The translations under genes were made by a program, and so were the position numbers. Shown in pieces: positions 15,281-54,030 of a stretch of DNA of 64,000 nucleotides. The stretch is taken from NCBI GenBank assembly GCA_963836755.1, contig CAWIKF010000002.1, positions 992,001-1,056,000 on the forward strand. The letters run 5' to 3'. Source of the stretch: an uncultured Verrucomicrobiae bacterium (GTDB lineage: Bacteria > Verrucomicrobiota > Verrucomicrobiia > Chthoniobacterales > Chthoniobacteraceae). Under the pieces are notes generated by a model that did no database searches, was not told the origin of the DNA, and saw nothing but the letters and a program-made list of their open reading frames with translations. Numbering within the stretch: position 1 is the first letter of the stretch; the number at the start of each line of letters is the position of its first letter.

Positions 15281-15575
15281 AAACCGGTATCCATCGTCGG
15301 AAACCCATCTCGCATCATCGGAAACCGGTCTTGCATCGTCGGAAACCGGTCTCGCATCGTCGGAAACCGGTCTCGCATCGTCGGAAACCGGTCTCGCATC
15401 GTCGGAAACCGGTCTCGCATCGTCGGAAGCCCGTCTCGCGTCATCGGAAACCGGTCTTGCATCATCGGAAACCAGTCTCGCATCGTCGGAAACCCGTCTC
15501 GCGTCATCGGAAACCGATCTCACATCGTCGGAAACCAGTCTCGCGTCATCGGAAACCGATCTCACATCGTCGGAA
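15281..15575. repeat. 21-bp tandem array, about 13.5 units, consensus CATCGTCGGAAACCGGTCTCG
   Basis: Unit starts from 15292 to 15565 are exactly 13x21 bp apart; all six frames are open across it. Confidence 0.97.
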
Positions 15576-28284: not shown

Positions 28285-30471
28285 CTAAAACGCGGGCGCG
28301 GCGGCGGGCTCGGGCGCGGGATCGACCCACTTCCCATGCTCGCGGATCAAGTCCTGGAGCCGATCGACGGCCTCCGCCTGCGGGATGTTGAATTTCACCG
28401 GCGTCTTGCCGACGTAGAGATTGATCTTCCCCGGCGCGCCGCCGACGTAGCCGAAATCGGCGTCAGCCATCTCGCCCGGCCCGTTCACGATGCAGCCCAT
28501 GATCGCGATTTTGACGCCTTTCAAATGCACCGTCGCAGCCTTGATGCGCGCCGTCGTTTCCTGGAGGTTGAAAAGCGTCCGCCCGCAGCTCGGGCAGGCG
28601 ACGTAATCGGTCTTGAAAATGCGCGAGCCGGCGGCCTGCAGGATGTTGTAGGAAAGGCGCAGCGCCTGTCCCGGCGCATCCTCGCCCTGCACCAAAATCG
28701 CGTCGCCGATGCCGTCGCAGAGGAGCGAGCCGATGTTCGTCGCGGCGGTCAGGAGCGTGGTGAGGAAATCCTGTCCGTCCCCTTTCGCGTTTGAAAACGG
28801 GAGCGCGGGCTTCCAGCCTGCTGCGTCCGGCATCCTGCCGGATGCATCTGCGGGCGCAGTCTCGACGGAGGAACCGGGCAGGGATGCCCGGTTCGGCAGG
28901 CTGGAAGCCCGCGCTCCCGGCAGAACATCTTTCAGCAAAATCGGGTGGCGCGCATCGAGCCGCGCGGCGAGCAGGCGGAAGGCGGCGATCACGGGCAGCG
29001 CGGTCGTGTCGGATACGGTGACTAAAAGCTCAGTTTCGCTTTGGTTCAGAGCGGCGAGGGCGGCTTCGTCGCGGGGATCGACTTCGCGGACATCGGCGTT
29101 TTCCACGACGATCTCGGGCTTGTAATCGCCCATTCGGTCGATTTTGTGCGCGATTTTCTCGAATTGCGCCTGCCGGATGAAGACACGGATCAGCTCCTCG
29201 CCGCCGAGCCGGACGCCGCCGCGGTCGAGCGTGGCAGTCGCGCGGCGTGTGTAGGAAAACGGGTCGTAGGAGAGGACGTCGAGCGGAACGGCTGGGTCGT
29301 TGGAAGGAACGGCGGGACCGTTGGAAGGAACGGCGGGACCGTTGGAAGGAACGGCGGGACCGTTGGAAGGAACGGTGGGACCGTTGGAAGGAACGGTGGG
29401 ACCGTTGGAAGGAACGGTGGAACCGTTGGAGGGAACGGTGGGACCGTTGGAGGGAACGGCGGGACCGTTGGAAGGAACGGTGGGACCGTTGGAAGGAACG
29501 GTGGGACCGTTCTCAACAGAGTAATTCGCCGTCTGCGCCTCGCTCGCGGACGCCGCGGGCGACATTTTCCCCTGTGACTGAAGCGCGTTGAACGGCGCGG
29601 CGAGCGCCTGCGCCACGGGAATCTCGTGGACGCTGTCTTCGGTGAGCGAAACGCGGATGGTATCGCCGATGCCGTCGCTGAGCAGTGAGCCGATGCCGAT
29701 GGCGCTTTTGATGCGGGCATCCTCGCCGTCGCCGGCCTCGGTCACGCCGAGATGGATCGGGTAATTCCAGTCCGCGCCTTCGTCATTGAGCCGGGCGACG
29801 AGCAGCCGATACGCCTCGATCATCACCTTCGGGTTGCTCGATTTCATCGAAAAAACAAAGGCGTGAAAGTCGAGGTCGCGCGCGATGCGGGCAAACTCCA
29901 GCGCGCTCTCGACCATGCCGAGCGGGGTGTCGCCGTAGCGGTTCATGATGCGGTCGCTCAGCGAGCCGTGGTTTGTGCCGATGCGCATGGCGACGCGGCG
30001 CGCCTTGCAAAGCTCGACCAGCGGCGTGAAGCGCTCGCGGATGCGGGCGAGCTCGGCGGCGTATTGCTCGTCGGTGTATTCGAGAATCTTGAACTTCTTG
30101 CTGTCGGCGTAATTGCCGGGATTGATGCGGACTTTTTCCACCCACTTCGCGGCTTCCATCGCGGCCTCGGGCTTAAAATGGATGTCGGCGACGAGCGGCA
30201 CGTCGCAGCCTTTTTCCAAAAGCCCGGCCTTGATGTGCTGGAGATTCGCGGCGTCCTTCACCGTCGGCGCGGTGATGCGGACAATCTCGCAGCCGACTTT
30301 CACGAGATCGAGCGTCTGCTGGATCGACGCCGCGGTGTCCATCGTGTCGCAGGTGATCATCGACTGGACGCGGATCGGGTTTTGCCCTCCGACGCCGACT
30401 TTGCCGACGAGCACCTCGCGCGTGGCGCGGCGCTGGTAGGTGAATGGGTTCGCGCAGTAGCTGGCGCTCAT
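28285..30471 (-). CDS. ispG: HMBPP synthase (long form) with two in-frame repeat insertions
   Basis: PIRVQSM, ADIHF, RINPGN, RIGTNHGSL, HLGVTEAG, GIGDTIRVSL, ACPSCGR, MGCIVNGPGE. Confidence 0.97.
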   Translation of the reverse strand: MSASYCANPFTYQRRATREVLVGKVGVGGQNPIRVQSMITCDTMDTAASIQQTLDLVKVGCEIVRITAPTVKDAANLQHIKAGLLEKGCDVPLVADIHFKPEAAMEAAKWVEKVRINPGNYADSKKFKILEYTDEQYAAELARIRERFTPLVELCKARRVAMRIGTNHGSLSDRIMNRYGDTPLGMVESALEFARIARDLDFHAFVFSMKSSNPKVMIEAYRLLVARLNDEGADWNYPIHLGVTEAGDGEDARIKSAIGIGSLLSDGIGDTIRVSLTEDSVHEIPVAQALAAPFNALQSQGKMSPAASASEAQTANYSVENGPTVPSNGPTVPSNGPAVPSNGPTVPSNGSTVPSNGPTVPSNGPTVPSNGPAVPSNGPAVPSNGPAVPSNDPAVPLDVLSYDPFSYTRRATATLDRGGVRLGGEELIRVFIRQAQFEKIAHKIDRMGDYKPEIVVENADVREVDPRDEAALAALNQSETELLVTVSDTTALPVIAAFRLLAARLDARHPILLKDVLPGARASSLPNRASLPGSSVETAPADASGRMPDAAGWKPALPFSNAKGDGQDFLTTLLTAATNIGSLLCDGIGDAILVQGEDAPGQALRLSYNILQAAGSRIFKTDYVACPSCGRTLFNLQETTARIKAATVHLKGVKIAIMGCIVNGPGEMADADFGYVGGAPGKINLYVGKTPVKFNIPQAEAVDRLQDLIREHGKWVDPAPEPAAAPAF
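28798..28919. repeat. REP/REPIN-like palindromic element inside ispG
   Basis: Perfect 24-bp inverted repeat (CGGGAGCGCGGGCTTCCAGCCTGC at 28798-28821, reverse complement at 28896-28919) enclosing two further hairpins. Confidence 0.9.
29285..29511. repeat. 21-bp tandem array (about 11 units) in frame within ispG, encoding (NGPTVPS)n
   Basis: Consensus GGAACGGTGGGACCGTTGGAA; unit starts from 29285 to 29495 are 10x21 bp apart. Confidence 0.97.
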
Positions 30472-34385: not shown

Positions 34386-34991
34386 CTACCTGGGATGCGA
34401 GTTGTGCTTCGCGGGAGTAGTGGCCGTCACCGAGAAATCATCCACATAAAACGGCCCACTGGAGTTCAGCGCCTCGATTAAAAACTCGTGCCGTAATTCC
34501 TCGATCTTGGAAAAATGGACGGTGATCGTCTTCCAGCGGCCCGAACGAGCCACCCCGACCTCAGTGATGCGGGAATCATATTTGGCGCTATACAGCCGCA
34601 CCCGCAGGATCAGTTCTGAATCGTCGTCGGAATTCAACTTCAGCTTCTTCGGCGCGAGCACGCGGAAATGCGCGGTCACTGCATCCACGGAGTCAGGGAT
34701 GGCCAACGGCGCCGATGCAGCAGGGATCTGCTTGTCGCTCAGCGACAGCACATGATTTTTCGCGTTCACCGGATCGGGCACCACCTGGCCGCTTATTTGC
34801 CACCCTGCAGCGCCATTCTCGAAATCCCCACTCACCGCCAGCAGGCCAGACTTCCCCGTCCCGCCCGGTGGCGGGGAGGGCGAAGACTGTGCCGGTTCCG
34901 CCGACGGAGTCGGAGAAGCTGTCGGCTCCGCGCCCAGCGCTTGCAACCCGCAGACGAAAAGGATCAACAGCATTGCGGGCACTCTCTTCAT
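34386..34991 (-). CDS. Secreted hypothetical protein with a CBM-like (galactose-binding fold) domain
   Basis: Signal peptide, Pro/Ser linker, GDFENG..GW...FYVDDFSV. Confidence 0.6.
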   Translation of the reverse strand: MKRVPAMLLILFVCGLQALGAEPTASPTPSAEPAQSSPSPPPGGTGKSGLLAVSGDFENGAAGWQISGQVVPDPVNAKNHVLSLSDKQIPAASAPLAIPDSVDAVTAHFRVLAPKKLKLNSDDDSELILRVRLYSAKYDSRITEVGVARSGRWKTITVHFSKIEELRHEFLIEALNSSGPFYVDDFSVTATTPAKHNSHPR

Positions 34992-35042: not shown

Positions 35043-35783
35043 TTACACATGGAGGACCTCGCACTCCGCGAAGCGTTTGCCCGCCGTAACCGAAAAATCC
35101 CCGTCCCACGAAACGAACACCGGAAGACTTTCATCACACTCATTGAAAGAGTGGAACAGGGTCAAGCCGGTGCCAATGGTGCTCATGGTGAAATCGGTGC
35201 CAGCGCCGTTGCCGCGTCGCTGGGGCAGGCCACAGAGCTTCGAGCCGGAGAGTGTCAGAGAGCCGCAGGGAGCCGCGCCGTTGGTGCTTCCGCTTGTAGA
35301 AGAGTGGGCCAAGGTAAAGCCGGTGCCGCTGCTGCCGCCGGACTCAGTCTTGCCTTCGCCCTGCGAACCAGATCGTCCCTCCACGCTGCCCGTGCTTCGG
35401 CGTCCGAGCCGGGCCCCGCGTCTCGAATGGCGGCGCACCCGCTGCAAGCCAAGCAGCGCCCCCAGCCCGGTCGCCAGCATTGCCCACGTAGAATACTCGG
35501 GCGCTAAATCCGCGATGGTGGTGCATACGGACGAATAAAACGCGGGGATGAGGCTGGAGGCGCATGGGGCCGTTCCCAGATTGCTGAACGGGTCCGCAGC
35601 CCCCTGTTCGACATTGCTGGCGACGTCCGCAGCGATAGCCTCGAAGACGCCTGTTGTCCCGAAGACGTTTGCCGACCAGCCAAAGTTCTCACCGCCCCCG
35701 CCGGCGGCGAAGTCCGCAGCCCATATCGTCCGAATCCCCGCAAGCAGCAAGACCGCCACTGCGAGAGTAGTTTTGGTTTTCAT
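35043..35783 (-). pseudogene. Degenerate secreted-protein relic with an internal PEP-CTERM-like anchor and decayed GloVer (TIGR03803-like) repeats
   Basis: APEYSTWAMLATGLGALLGLQRVRR lies mid-ORF, followed by GTGFTLAHS..GAAPCGSLTLSGSKLCG..GTGLTLFHSF. Confidence 0.55.
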
Positions 35784-35868
35784 GGTTTCTTTCCTCTGTT
35801 TCCGAAGCGGCTCTACCAGCCGCCAATTGTCCTGTTGGTTCTGCTTCCGTTTTTGCCGACAGCCGCAC

Positions 35869-36484
35869 TCAGCCCGCAAACGCCACCTGCACGATGTCGC
35901 TCATCTCGCCGACTTCCTCGTCGTTAATCACCCCACGCGCGGCGTATTCGCGCGTCTCCGCCATGCCGGGAGTTTTCAGCGGCGTCTGGTCGTCGAACGG
36001 GAATTTCTTCCGCTGGATGCCGACAAGCCTCCACGAGGTCGTGCCGCCGATGCGCGTGTAGATGTTCACCAGCTCGGCGTAAGCCTTTGAGCCGGTGATG
36101 CGCACGCTGCCCGGAAACGCCTCCGCCTTGATCTTCGGCTTGATCGCGTTTGGATCGTGCGCCGTCGTCTTGGTAAAAACATTCATCGATGTCGCCCATG
36201 CCATCGGTGAATTTCGTGTTGTTCTTCAGGTTATTGATGAACGCTCGCAACGCCTCGCTTTGCTGCGAATAAAGCTGCGCGGCATTGGCGGCGGCCGCGA
36301 CGACGGCGTTCTCGGCATCGACCAGCGTCTGGTAGGTGGTGATGAGCGGGATGAGCAGCGCGTCGGCGGCGGCAAGGTCGGCCGCATCGAGGCCGAGCGC
36401 GACAGCATTGGCATGGGTTTGCGCTTTGAGGTTGATGAAAAACGCGAGCCGGTTTTCGTGGGAATCTGGGATGAAGTCTGCCAT
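35869..36484 (-). CDS. Hypothetical protein (helical N-terminus + Fn3/Ig-like C-terminus), frameshifted near 36190; adjacent to a 21-bp array
   Basis: MADFIPDS...FTDGMG (36484 frame) continues as MNVFTKTT...ETREYAARGVINDEEVGEMSDIVQVAFAG (36204 frame). Confidence 0.7.
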
Positions 36485-36648
36485 GGGATTTTGTTTTCTG
36501 GGGTTTACTGCTGCGGTTTCTAGCCGCGGGTTTTGTTTTGCTGGAGTTCGCGCTTCAAAGCGCTGCTACAGCGGATCGTGGAGAGTTTCTGGGGTTTTAT
36601 GCTGAAAATGAAGGAGTTGCGTCAAAAATGCGCCGTTTCGGGCATGAA

Positions 36649-36900
36649 CCGTCGTCTCCCGGGTCGGAACCGGGACGTCCCGGCTCCGATCCGGGAGCTC
36701 CCGACTTTGACCCGGGACGTCCCGGCTGTGAACCGGGAGCACCCGGCTGGAGCCCGGGAGTTCCCGGGCCGGACTTGGGACGTCCCGACTTTGACTCGGG
36801 AGCACCCGGCGCGGACCCGGGAAGCGCCAACTCCGACTCGGGACGCCCCGGCTTGCAGACGGGAGACGACGGGGGCGAGCCGGGAAGCGGCGTTGAGCCG
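36649..36900. repeat. 21-bp array: 14-bp palindrome CCGGGACGTCCCGG plus variable 7-nt spacer
   Basis: Units at 36670, 36691, 36712 ... 36880 with exact 21-bp spacing; degenerate units extend from 36649 to about 36950. Confidence 0.92.
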
Positions 36901-36951
36901 CCGCATCGCCGGGAAAAGCCGCCGGGCGGCGTCTCCGTTCCGCCGGGGCAC

Positions 36952-36976
36952 AAAAAAGCCGTCCAATAGGACGGCT
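36952..36976 (-). terminator. Intrinsic terminator
   Basis: Minus strand AGCCGTCC-TATT-GGACGGCT followed by a T run. Confidence 0.8.
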
Positions 36977-40804: not shown

Positions 40805-41695
40805 TCAAAAATCGTCGAGCGGATGGTGCAGCAGCGCGATGAATTCCTTTTGCGCGGATGTGCGCGGATGATTGCGCCTGCTCAGGATGCCGAGCGGCCG
40901 CCGCATTTCCGGCTTCGAAATTTCCACCGCGGCGAGCGTGCCGCTTTTAACTTCCTGCAGAATCGTGTTTTCAGGGACAATCGAGACGCCGTTTTCGATT
41001 TCGACCGCGCGCTTGACCGTCTCGATGTTGTCAAACTCGATCGCCTGCACAATCGAAACGCCCTCCGCCCGAAAGTGCTTGTCGAGCACTTTGCGCGTCG
41101 GCAGGTCGGGCTCAAATGCGATGAATTTTTCGCCCTCGAGCTCGCAAAGTTCGATCCGTTTGCGCGCAGCGAGCCGATGGCCCGGATGGCAGATGAGCAC
41201 GAGCCGATCGGTGAGAAATTCCTCGCATTGCACGCCGTGCCGCTTCGATGGATACGAGACGAGGCCGAGGTCGACTTCGCCCGAAAGGACGAGGCCGTAG
41301 ATTTCCCACGAGCGCCGATACTCGATCCGCACCGCGACGTTCGGGTGCAGCGCGCGAAACATTTTCAAATACGGCGGCAGCTCGTGCAGTCCGATGCTGT
41401 AAATGACCGCGATCTTCAAGTCGCCGGCGACAATGTTTTGCAGTTCGTTCAGCCGCGAGGCGAGGTGCTCGTAGATGCCGTTAATCTCGCGCGCTGCCGC
41501 GAGAAACGCGTCGCCTTCCTGCGTCAGCGCGAAGTTGCGCGGGCCGCGTTCGATCAGCTTCACGGCGAACTTTTTTTCGAGCGCCATGATCTGCTGGCTG
41601 ACGGCGCTTTGCGTGATGCGATTTAATTTCGCAGCTTGTGAAAAACTGCCGGTCTCGGCGAGGTCGCAGAAAATTTTAAACGTTTCGATTTGCAC
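40805..41695 (-). CDS. LysR family transcriptional regulator
   Basis: HTH GSFSQAAKLNRITQSAVSQQI; GTG start. Confidence 0.92.
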   Translation of the reverse strand: MQIETFKIFCDLAETGSFSQAAKLNRITQSAVSQQIMALEKKFAVKLIERGPRNFALTQEGDAFLAAAREINGIYEHLASRLNELQNIVAGDLKIAVIYSIGLHELPPYLKMFRALHPNVAVRIEYRRSWEIYGLVLSGEVDLGLVSYPSKRHGVQCEEFLTDRLVLICHPGHRLAARKRIELCELEGEKFIAFEPDLPTRKVLDKHFRAEGVSIVQAIEFDNIETVKRAVEIENGVSIVPENTILQEVKSGTLAAVEISKPEMRRPLGILSRRNHPRTSAQKEFIALLHHPLDDF

Positions 41696-41728
41696 GCGGC
41701 GGCGGGAAAATGCGTGATCGTTTCGCGC

Positions 41729-42436
41729 ATGGACATCATTTCGCACCGGCTCGATGAAGTGAATGGAAAAATCGCAAACGCCGCTGCGAAGTCGGGCCGG
41801 CGGGCTGATGAAATCGAACTCGTCGCCGTTTCCAAGACACATCCGCCGGAGGCGATTCACGAGGCGCTCGATGCGGGCCAGACGCTTTTTGGCGAGAGCC
41901 GCGTGCAGGAGGCGCGTGCGAAAATTCCGCTGCTGCCGGGCCGCGCGCGGTGGCATTTCATCGGACATTTGCAGAAAAATAAAATCCGCCACGCGCTCCC
42001 GCTTTTCGAACTTTTTCACGGCATCGATTCGATCGAGCTCGCGCGGGATTTGCAGCGAATCGCGGACGAAGCCGGCGCGCGGCCGCGCATTTTGCTGGAA
42101 GTAAATGTCGCGGGCGAAGCGTCAAAGTTCGGCTTCAAACCGGAGACGCTCCGCACGCAAATCGAGGAGCTGGTCGCACTCGATCGGCTGGAAATCGAAG
42201 GGCTGATGACGATCGCGCCGTTCGCGCCGGAGCCGGAAAATTCGCGTCGATATTTCGCGGCGTTGCGCGAGCTGCGCGATGATTTGAAAGTCCAGATCGC
42301 GCTGCCGCAGCTCTCGATGGGAATGAGCGGCGACTACGCGGTTGCCGTCGAGGAAGGCGCGACGCTTGTGCGCGTGGGCACGGCGATTTTTGGCAAGCGC
42401 AGCGGGAAAAATTTTCGCGCAGCCGATGCGCCTTGA
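41729..42436 (+). CDS. yggS: YggS family PLP homeostasis protein
   Basis: LVAVSKT, WHFIGHLQKNK, LSMGMSGDY..A..EGAT.VRVGT.IFG. Confidence 0.95.
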   Translation: MDIISHRLDEVNGKIANAAAKSGRRADEIELVAVSKTHPPEAIHEALDAGQTLFGESRVQEARAKIPLLPGRARWHFIGHLQKNKIRHALPLFELFHGIDSIELARDLQRIADEAGARPRILLEVNVAGEASKFGFKPETLRTQIEELVALDRLEIEGLMTIAPFAPEPENSRRYFAALRELRDDLKVQIALPQLSMGMSGDYAVAVEEGATLVRVGTAIFGKRSGKNFRAADAP

Positions 42437-53794: not shown

Positions 53795-54030
53795 GGAGGT
53801 TTCGAAAACCAATCCCGGTCTTCTCGACACCTCGGCTTCCCTCGACGAGACCTCGGACGGGGCTTTGCGCGACCTCCATTGCCCTTTCCGAGACCAAATT
53901 GCCCTCGCGGAGAGAAAGATTGCCCTCCGCGAGACCAAATTATCCGTCGCCGAGACCAAATTTGCCCTTTGGAAGGCCTCCATTGCCCTCGCGAAGCTCG
54001 AAAGAGCCCTCGCCGAGACCTCCCCCGGCG
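53795..54030. repeat. Degenerate 21-bp array (about 11 units), minus-strand consensus AATTTGGTCTCGGCGAGGGCA
   Basis: GAGGGC/GGTCTC recur at about 21-nt period; the plus frame reads heptads IALAERK/IALRETK/LSVAETK/FALWKAS. Confidence 0.85.

Follow-up and report, generated by a model that had tools for sequence, protein, structure and literature searches.

The gene-array unit described here is real, undescribed and widespread, and it is new in its anatomy. It joins a gene for a small protein, half helical and half beta sandwich, to an upstream array of tandem 21-bp units. The window, meaning the whole stretch of 64,000 nucleotides that was analysed, is G000:C2:992001-1056000 in the genome of an uncultured Verrucomicrobiae bacterium (G000, GCA_963836755.1; 3.18 Mb in 4 contigs, 96% complete), and most of it matches one sequencing run, a soil metagenome; the bacterium is taken to be a soil Verrucomicrobiota. 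The locus has the following features:

34386..34991, minus strand: 201-aa ORF without family, within a 2.8-kb block
35043..35780, minus strand: ORF downstream of the gene, with a signal-like start and a weak PEP-CTERM likeness (E 0.016, below the cut-off)
35869..36484, minus strand: gene for a protein of ~205 aa, helical hairpin plus fibronectin type III (FN3) domain, in two frames with an extra base near 36191
36592..36892, no strand assigned: sharp-edged block, the array with its 57-bp gene-side flank, with a gene-less sister elsewhere in the genome
36594..36609, minus strand: weak variant CAGCATAAAA of an array-end motif, at the edge of the copied block (score 16 against the motif CAGAGTAAA)
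36649..36900, no strand assigned: 21-bp array of 12 units, from the lag scan, TRF and unit-by-unit symmetry
36947..36976, minus strand: hairpin with U-run, terminator-like, beyond the array as seen from the gene, from a hairpin scan

Thirty unique homologues were of full length and had 300 bp or more of upstream sequence; of these, 26 had a 21/42-bp array upstream and none had one downstream (0/30, maximum signal 0.49). The cut of 0.54 in the lag-21/42 signal was chosen after the data had been seen, and at 0.56 the count is 23/30, as three borderline loci drop out. Partial matches, six of them without an array, were excluded from the count. The expectation that homologues would have 21-bp arrays beside them was thus borne out on the upstream side, and all eight paralogues found in G000 by HMM alone likewise carried an array (8/8). 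The gene-linked arrays have mostly 9-14 units (45 of 48 have between 7 and 17) and terminate roughly 50-300 bp ahead of the gene start. The misses were four of the 30 homologues and one full-length paralogue of a second group. No neighbour recurred among 64 proteins from 25 loci, which included no transposase, one integrase and no recurring motor. A search of 41 relatives found the family in seven, and 21 out of 401 genomes in the order contain close members. The sequences show the gene and its upstream array as a single cassette that stands alone, turns up at unrelated sites and is patchily spread. The initial annotation had proposed an undescribed protein-plus-array unit, and the linkage supports this; full-text searches of largely open-access papers gave no description of such a module.

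The gene runs on the minus strand from its start at 36484 to its end at 35869 and is read in two frames in GCA_963836755.1. A contig from the sequencing run X1 (494 bp, depth 4.8) is the same as positions 35781-36275 except for one base fewer at 36191; this comparison is with a single contig, and X1 may be the source sample. In addition, 11 of 145 conserved orthologues in the assembly have a frame change or stop by tblastn, some of which are alignment run-through. It is therefore probable, on these sequence comparisons, that the frameshift, although present in the assembly as first noted, is an assembly error, as it is absent from the near-identical X1 contig. Elsewhere in the window, the frame of a conserved gene at 41475-42436 (C2:1033475-1034418) changes compared to its orthologue in the relative G002, which is likely another assembly indel.

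The gene is not the orphan it had been taken for. There are 24 close homologues, mostly of 204-206 aa and 52-74% identical over the C-terminal half, and a profile search matched 1,172 clusters at E<=0.001. The closest homologues are in Chthoniobacterales/Spartobacteria records, and in the Atlas the family forms unnamed clusters in Verrucomicrobiota and Bacteroidota. No match of substance was found in Pfam, NCBIfam, PHROGs or PADLOC for the family or its all-helical counterparts, nor to a known DNA-binding family in Pfam and NCBIfam; phages, plasmids and viral contigs gave no match with P0001, A1 or A3, and BFVD gave generic FN3 matches only. No signal peptide was seen. The family genes at five loci (L042, L047, L050, L052, L056) seem, as read by eye, to bear an in-frame N-terminal extension upstream of the usual start, which is conserved between genomes and rich in W-D motifs (for example WDxGxWD and WNDPN).

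The AlphaFold2 model of one homologue, P0001 (pLDDT 89, pTM 0.47), has helices at residues 10-26, 35-89 and 95-101 followed by a beta sandwich, in agreement with the helical N-half and beta C-half first noted. Residues 110-205 have the seven-strand sandwich of the fibronectin type III fold and match 4yfd_A (Z 11.4, rmsd 2.0 Å, 87 residues aligned), with 10-20% identity; the Foldseek E value is 6.6e-5. The FN3 fold says nothing on the function of the protein. Homodimer prediction with the own alignment of P0001 scored 0.68 compared to 0.00 for the best of three controls, reaching a mark that solved homodimers attain in 20 of 30 cases and monomers in 1 of 23; the runs agree in at least 80% of contacts, with pLDDT of at least 84. 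The best contacts have i+j of 116-127, mostly 120-124, and these sums indicate antiparallel pairing through the long helix with its axis near residue 61. The cassette protein is thus predicted by the model to be an antiparallel homodimer. Position 81 is basic in 0.89 of the alignment rows and position 88 in 1.00, positions 134, 145 and 179 are further conserved basic ones, and the FN3 half also has conserved acidic positions. With a median net charge of 0 (N-half +1) the protein is about neutral, and on this ground the idea of an acidic DNA mimic was discarded.

In the array of the window, all 12 units between 36649 and about 36900 stand in phase at exact 21-bp steps, with no indel, and the array fades by 36921, so the period first reported was correct. 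Its self-match reaches 0.61 at a lag of 21 and 0.60 at one of 42, compared to at most 0.38 at other lags from 3 to 49, and TRF detects it as well. The unit core is CCGGGA-NN-TCCCGG. The 14-bp palindrome that each unit had been said to contain is perfect in two of the 12, while four more match at 12/14 and two at 10/14. The variant GGGAGCTCCC, which had been described as preserving the symmetry, was seen once, and most variants break it. Units are best preserved on the gene side and the distal ones are degenerate. The block of array and flank has a gene-less sister at G000:C2:578468-578747, which is 79% identical, exactly 21 bp shorter and sharp-edged, with the same unit order. The likeness of CAGCATAAAA to the motif CAGAGTAAA at the edge of the block may be chance, as the motif was trained on such flanks. 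The terminator said to bound the array corresponds to a hairpin with U-run at 36976-36957 on the minus strand, but the scan finds 2 such sites against 2.9 in shuffles, and the hairpin is not significant alone. No sigma-70 promoter was found by consensus scan.

How such arrays behave was followed in 48 gene-linked arrays, 45 of them with at least eight units. A single phase is kept by 37 of the 45, and unit-to-unit identity drops only from 0.60 at lag 1 to 0.55 at lag 10. Even lags are always above odd ones, indicating that units tend to alternate. Gene-proximal units are better preserved in 26 arrays and distal ones in 10. The units are not homogenised, and copies keep position-specific variants; the unit sequence changes fast under the fixed period, and there is no common unit sequence or clear 10.5-bp A/T pattern across arrays. 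Conservation has its highest power at 10.5 and 21 bp, its autocorrelation has no clear peak at lag 10-11, and the 21-bp arrays have no 7-base sub-period (lag 7 is at background). Self-complementarity exceeds column shuffles in 38 of 48 arrays. Stems average 4.3 bp over the 48, compared to 3.5 in shuffles; the layout of palindrome plus spacer thus holds locally in the window array and is not general. That all units are palindromic was rejected, as a global measure gave p<0.05 in 8 of 62 arrays. Folding has no strand preference (26 vs 22), and compensatory changes are not in excess (87 seen vs 81 expected, 774 one-sided). A 3-base rhythm of conservation is not found (power 0.074 vs 0.10 for flat; autocorrelation negative at lags 3, 6 and 9). 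Stop codons are rarer on the strand of the gene in 30 arrays and on the other in 11, with sense-strand ratios to Markov expectation of 0.75 for TGA, 0.71 for TAG and 1.0 for TAA; 83 of 144 sense frames are open compared to 52 of 144 antisense frames, and in 5 of the 48 arrays every sense frame is closed.

Unit sequence follows the protein to some degree. Array similarity and protein identity correlate with a Spearman coefficient of 0.26-0.31 over 25 loci, which are kin and not independent; unit similarity grows with identity and is above background in about half of the pairs at 60-69%. Still, proteins 74-76% identical may bear unrelated units, as do the genes C1:228561 and C2:1903743 (74% identical), which have both flanking motifs in common. 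Three GGCGG-type arrays accompany L81/R88/K51, and at L012 the residue is Q81 despite a CCGG-type array. These three form one tree branch and thus count as one event, so that covariation of residues and array is a sequence-based lead only, with too few independent changes. A second conserved motif, AAATCTTAACACTAAA, is set within inverted repeats and found next to three gene-linked arrays and, once, downstream of a gene (G000:C1:228600, C2:1903702, C2:2228662 and C2:2229923); it is possibly an operator.

A second array-linked family has 233 aa in two helical repeats, with runs at 31-83 and 145-198, each broken midway and similar in length to the one at 35-89 in the model of the window family. 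The two have no profile likeness (hhalign 0.2%). The second family is 59% identical to proteins labelled Accumulibacter, and at eight loci other than its own that cover the N-terminus, four had an array and four did not; close members in three genomes have an array motif in common, by eye. As for all-helical partners in general, the three proteins compared with DUF6261 (PF19775) have no Pfam match to it, and an Atlas neighbour at 0.88 is a cluster in which 32% of members are DUF6261; kinship is a lead only. A fold search with an all-helical partner gave unrelated bundles with a best Z of 9.8 and no Foldseek match under E 0.001.

In G000 as a whole, periodic regions number 54 at lag 21, 49 at lag 42 and 13 at lag 41, and all remaining lags between 12 and 45 have four or fewer. 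With looser settings 66 regions came up, of which 62 remained as arrays after one duplicate and three coiled-coil genes were removed, and these 62 form 34 sequence families. Twenty precede genes of seven helix-rich sequence groups, which were picked by eye from flanking ORFs; 36 are gene-less, with no intact partner gene (two retain part of one), and six lie in frame within genes. The window holds three that are not gene-linked:

15281..15575, no strand assigned: gene-less array that shares 89% identity with a gene-linked one at C4:55943
29285..29511, no strand assigned: array in frame within ispG, with a relative that precedes the paralogue C2:2229027
53878..54013, no strand assigned: short gene-less array, for which the genome gave no relative in sequence

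An empty site for the array at 15281 was not recovered, and its flanks are not syntenic. The array in the ispG loop was not seen at the same loop among the 16 relatives listed. The in-frame hosts are ispG, named by Pfam, and five genes that we take from motifs to be alaS, leuS, valS, nrdJ and an RND-type efflux pump gene; the arrays in alaS and ispG, two of the six, are sequence relatives of gene-linked arrays. The surroundings of gene-less arrays show no clear preference (22 tandem, 8 convergent and 6 divergent vs 378/125/175). In alaS an in-frame Y1 transposase and an in-frame 21-bp array (C1:60318-60581 and C1:61210-61448) lie ~600 bp apart in an open frame of 1200 aa. In ispG (28285-30471) a second in-frame insert at about residues 520-560 has the look of a REP-type palindrome and, by eye, resembles the sequences that flank the alaS transposase. 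Two compound arrays (C1:543692-544252 and C2:1782308-1782696), in which two unit families abut, belong to a four-member family with no partner gene in the assembly.

The number of arrays differs between relatives: six at lag 21 in 452 kb of G002, six in 200 kb of G004, one in 239 kb of G001, which has the end motif, and none in 200 kb of G022. A restriction of arrays to genomes with the window family was rejected, since G004, with no match to alignment A2, and G001 carry arrays without a family match. G004, which matches neither family searched, also has a 42-bp-type array at C13:58481-58808 upstream of another helix-rich unnamed ORF. The valS loop (L120, L126, L124) and the alaS loop (L119) hold unrelated non-repetitive inserts of 60-115 codons; by their sequences, these loops are general insertion sinks in relatives.

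The position near cdsA, to which the initial annotation had drawn attention, is coincidental, as is any link to uppS. The gene does not lie directly upstream of cdsA, since 1.5 kb and two ORFs (35043..35780 and 34386..34991) intervene; both belong to the 2.8-kb block between cdsA and a dynamin-like gene, and neither is a conserved partner. The uppS gene lies at C2:1760168 and is absent from the place upstream of cdsA in five of five relatives (translations read). The dynamin-like neighbour is resident in cassette-free relatives: in G022 it abuts cdsA, and G002 has another gene there and no cassette, which makes the cassette lineage-specific at this site. In G004 a two-gene unit, presumably a nucleotidyltransferase pair, lies between cdsA and its upstream genes (L090:2590-3527), and the site thus appears to be an insertion hot spot.

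What the array does is best explained, tentatively and with somewhat less than an even chance of being right, by a double-stranded DNA platform that would take up one dimer per two helical turns, likely the cassette's own product. Of the three mechanisms initially offered, a phased DNA platform is the best fit, given the lack of compensatory excess, strand bias and codon signal, and the pattern fits loosely symmetric double-stranded sites with selection for phase, as far as sequence can tell. The array would offer serial binding sites to a protein of two-fold symmetry, for which the predicted antiparallel dimer of the cassette is the most likely candidate; once coated, the array would control the expression of the gene itself. 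Recombination or repair by the host would spread its copies. As 21 is a multiple of 3, in-frame arrays would survive in protein loops. A helix rises 1.5 Å per residue and DNA 3.4 Å per bp. Positions 81 and 88, the most conserved basic ones in the helical half, would come close to either end of the dimer rod, and the ~47 residues between them correspond to 70 Å, compared to 71 Å for 21 bp, so that rod length would fix the period and let the unit sequence drift; the 70 Å are arithmetic from the dimer contact numbers of the model. This match favours the dimer of the cassette as ruler and reader, with autoregulation like that of a centromere repressor. On the other hand, positions 81 and 88 may be structural, as an alternative to DNA contact, and the neutral charge and the unrelated units at 74-76% identity speak against the own-dimer reading, as do the lack of a match to known DNA-binding families, the lack of a clear autocorrelation peak at lag 10-11, the scarcity of sense-strand stops and the loci that have no array. 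A stronger form, in which helical rod proteins would serve as rulers in general, polymerising on their own array with one dimer per 21 bp, specific to the paralogue and seeding the gene-less platforms, some of them within essential genes, is conceivable from the model but doubtful.

Plasmid centromeres are the proposed model for how the cassette works. In parC-ParR, tubC-TubR and parS-omega, as described in PMC5016525, tandem sites lie upstream, and a small dimer coats them and represses its own operon. The cassette likewise has its tandem repeats ahead of a gene whose product is small and predicted to be a dimer. In contrast to partition systems as presented there, it is chromosomal, occurs about 20 times per genome and has no conserved NTPase partner (no NTPase motor recurs among the neighbours), and its model, a helical hairpin and FN3, may differ from the ribbon-helix-helix, HTH or winged-helix folds of centromere binders; the whole protein gave no Pfam or NCBIfam match.

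An account that is also unlikely, though it deserves to be kept in view, is that the array is read by a host factor, such as a nucleoid-associated protein, gyrase or RNA polymerase, or acts through DNA shape, and controls the downstream gene, the job of the product being unrelated. As seven protein groups have one period in common and the two tested lack profile likeness, a host factor would be the simpler account of this. It is also consistent with the charge-neutral cassette protein, with the units replaced between flanks that were retained (C1:228561 vs C2:1903743), and with the 8-mer CAGAGTAA, which lies within 120 bp of 15 of the 62 arrays compared to 0.15 expected. However, the near-exclusive attachment to small helix-rich genes is left unexplained, and a common unit sequence or A/T pattern for such a reader is lacking, the array sequence following the protein family instead.

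It seems rather improbable that the arrays are a selfish minisatellite or MITE-like element, moved or made by a trans-acting enzyme that measures 21 bases, with the gene as passenger or helper. This would suit the 42 of 62 arrays without a gene, 23 of which belong to a family with a gene-linked one, the sharp-edged sister copy, the patchy family and its site empty in relatives, and the two HUH (Y1) transposases in the genome, one inside alaS. Also in its favour, homology among copies stops at the end motif in one array family. A matrix of this motif, in-sample as it was trained on the same flanks, scores at least 14 at 22 arrays and in 0.2% of random 180-mers; most of the sites are directed toward the array, and one array copy has the motif at both ends. 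However, the flanks of the 42 unlinked arrays have no excess of repeats over background (direct 7.3 vs 7.5, inverted 7.8 vs 7.4), in a test where array ends are approximate and short TSDs would be missed; no transposase occurs among the neighbouring proteins, and the position-specific variants kept between copies do not agree with homogenised units. G002 bears different arrays in the same loops, a 21-bp one in alaS and a 42-bp one in leuS, which would suit such an element, but no siblings of them were found in that 91%-complete assembly, and the same loops accept other inserts.

Mobile repeats of known kinds differ from the arrays in several ways. BrickBuilt of Porphyromonas gingivalis (PMC4596501, in part) has one 23-nt unit and no partner gene, is always intergenic and ends in inverted repeats, which may be lacking here; as a MITE it shares with our arrays the many dispersed, non-coding tandem copies with a leader, but not the at least 34 sequence families at one 21-bp period, the 20 partner genes or the six in-frame cases. 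Rickettsia palindromic elements and intragenic REPs place repeat DNA in frame in housekeeping genes, and GTAG repeats inside genes reach their highest number in the verrucomicrobium O. terrae (passages of PMC10969869 and PMC3733652). Those are single hairpins or dimers, compared to 4-12 tandem 21-mers here. The in-frame copies are a known kind of event with little novelty. The REP/BIME-RAYT system, in the part of PMC3733652 available, is similar in its short palindromic units, clusters and gene-less copies, and here the genome has its two Y1 transposases; yet our units have no GTAG foot, the adjacent gene is no transposase (not Y1_Tnp) and the period is fixed. The flanks of both Y1 genes hold other palindromes, by eye. 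Heptamer repeats (TAACTGA/STRR; PMC4679880 and PMC6344855, in part) likewise form genome-wide arrays of one favoured period and are not known to have a function, but the 21-bp period has no 7-base sub-period and is tied to gene families; the main text of PMC6344855, in the part available, makes no mention of 21 bp, and its supplementary tables may list such regions. Short heptamer repeats were seen near the cassettes in the flanks of L002, L008, L039 and L056, apart from the 21-bp arrays.

That the array works as RNA, either as a structured leader or as the source of short guide-like RNAs to which the protein would bind, is improbable. The window array does fold far better than dinucleotide shuffles (z -7.6), and arrays lie 50-300 bp upstream of the start. 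Nevertheless, the excess of compensatory changes and the strand preference of the hairpin or guide RNA first suggested are both lacking, about a fifth of the arrays fold no better than column shuffles, three Rfam matches are chance ones with none near the gathering score, and the terminator-like hairpin here would block read-through into the array. CRISPR has a period of about 58-81 bp with unique spacers of 25-60 bp (PMC6344855, in part), while the period here is 21 and the variable part is 7 bp and partly repeated. No PF01867 (cas1) match was found in the 96%-complete genome (the control was positive in 7 of 14), so the early statement that this is not CRISPR was correct. In type III toxin-antitoxin systems a terminator lies between the repeat array and the endoribonuclease gene, while the terminator-like minus-strand hairpin here lies beyond the array, and PADLOC gave no match of substance. 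TIGR-Tas has about 36-nt dual-spacer units and a Nop-domain protein, unlike the period of 21 and the lack of a Nop family match here. Finally, a heptad-repeat peptide, encoded on the strand of the gene and not in the antisense frame, is very unlikely: the more open and stop-poor sense frames and the six in-frame arrays would agree with it, but conservation has no 3-base signal, the sense frame is closed in some arrays, no peptide is common to the arrays, and the plus-frame heptads initially pointed out are not special, as five of six frames are open across the window array.

A fixed 21-bp period over at least 34 unrelated repeat sequences and several unnamed families points to a physical constraint, and one genome offers twenty natural protein-array pairs. 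In case the helical rods do measure their arrays, this would be a new kind of DNA-coating protein with a set of orthogonal operator arrays; if they do not, the reader would be a host factor. If a self-targeting rod is the right reading, the cassettes would bind DNA through a new kind of architecture, and nature would supply many pairs of protein and array that are orthogonal to one another.
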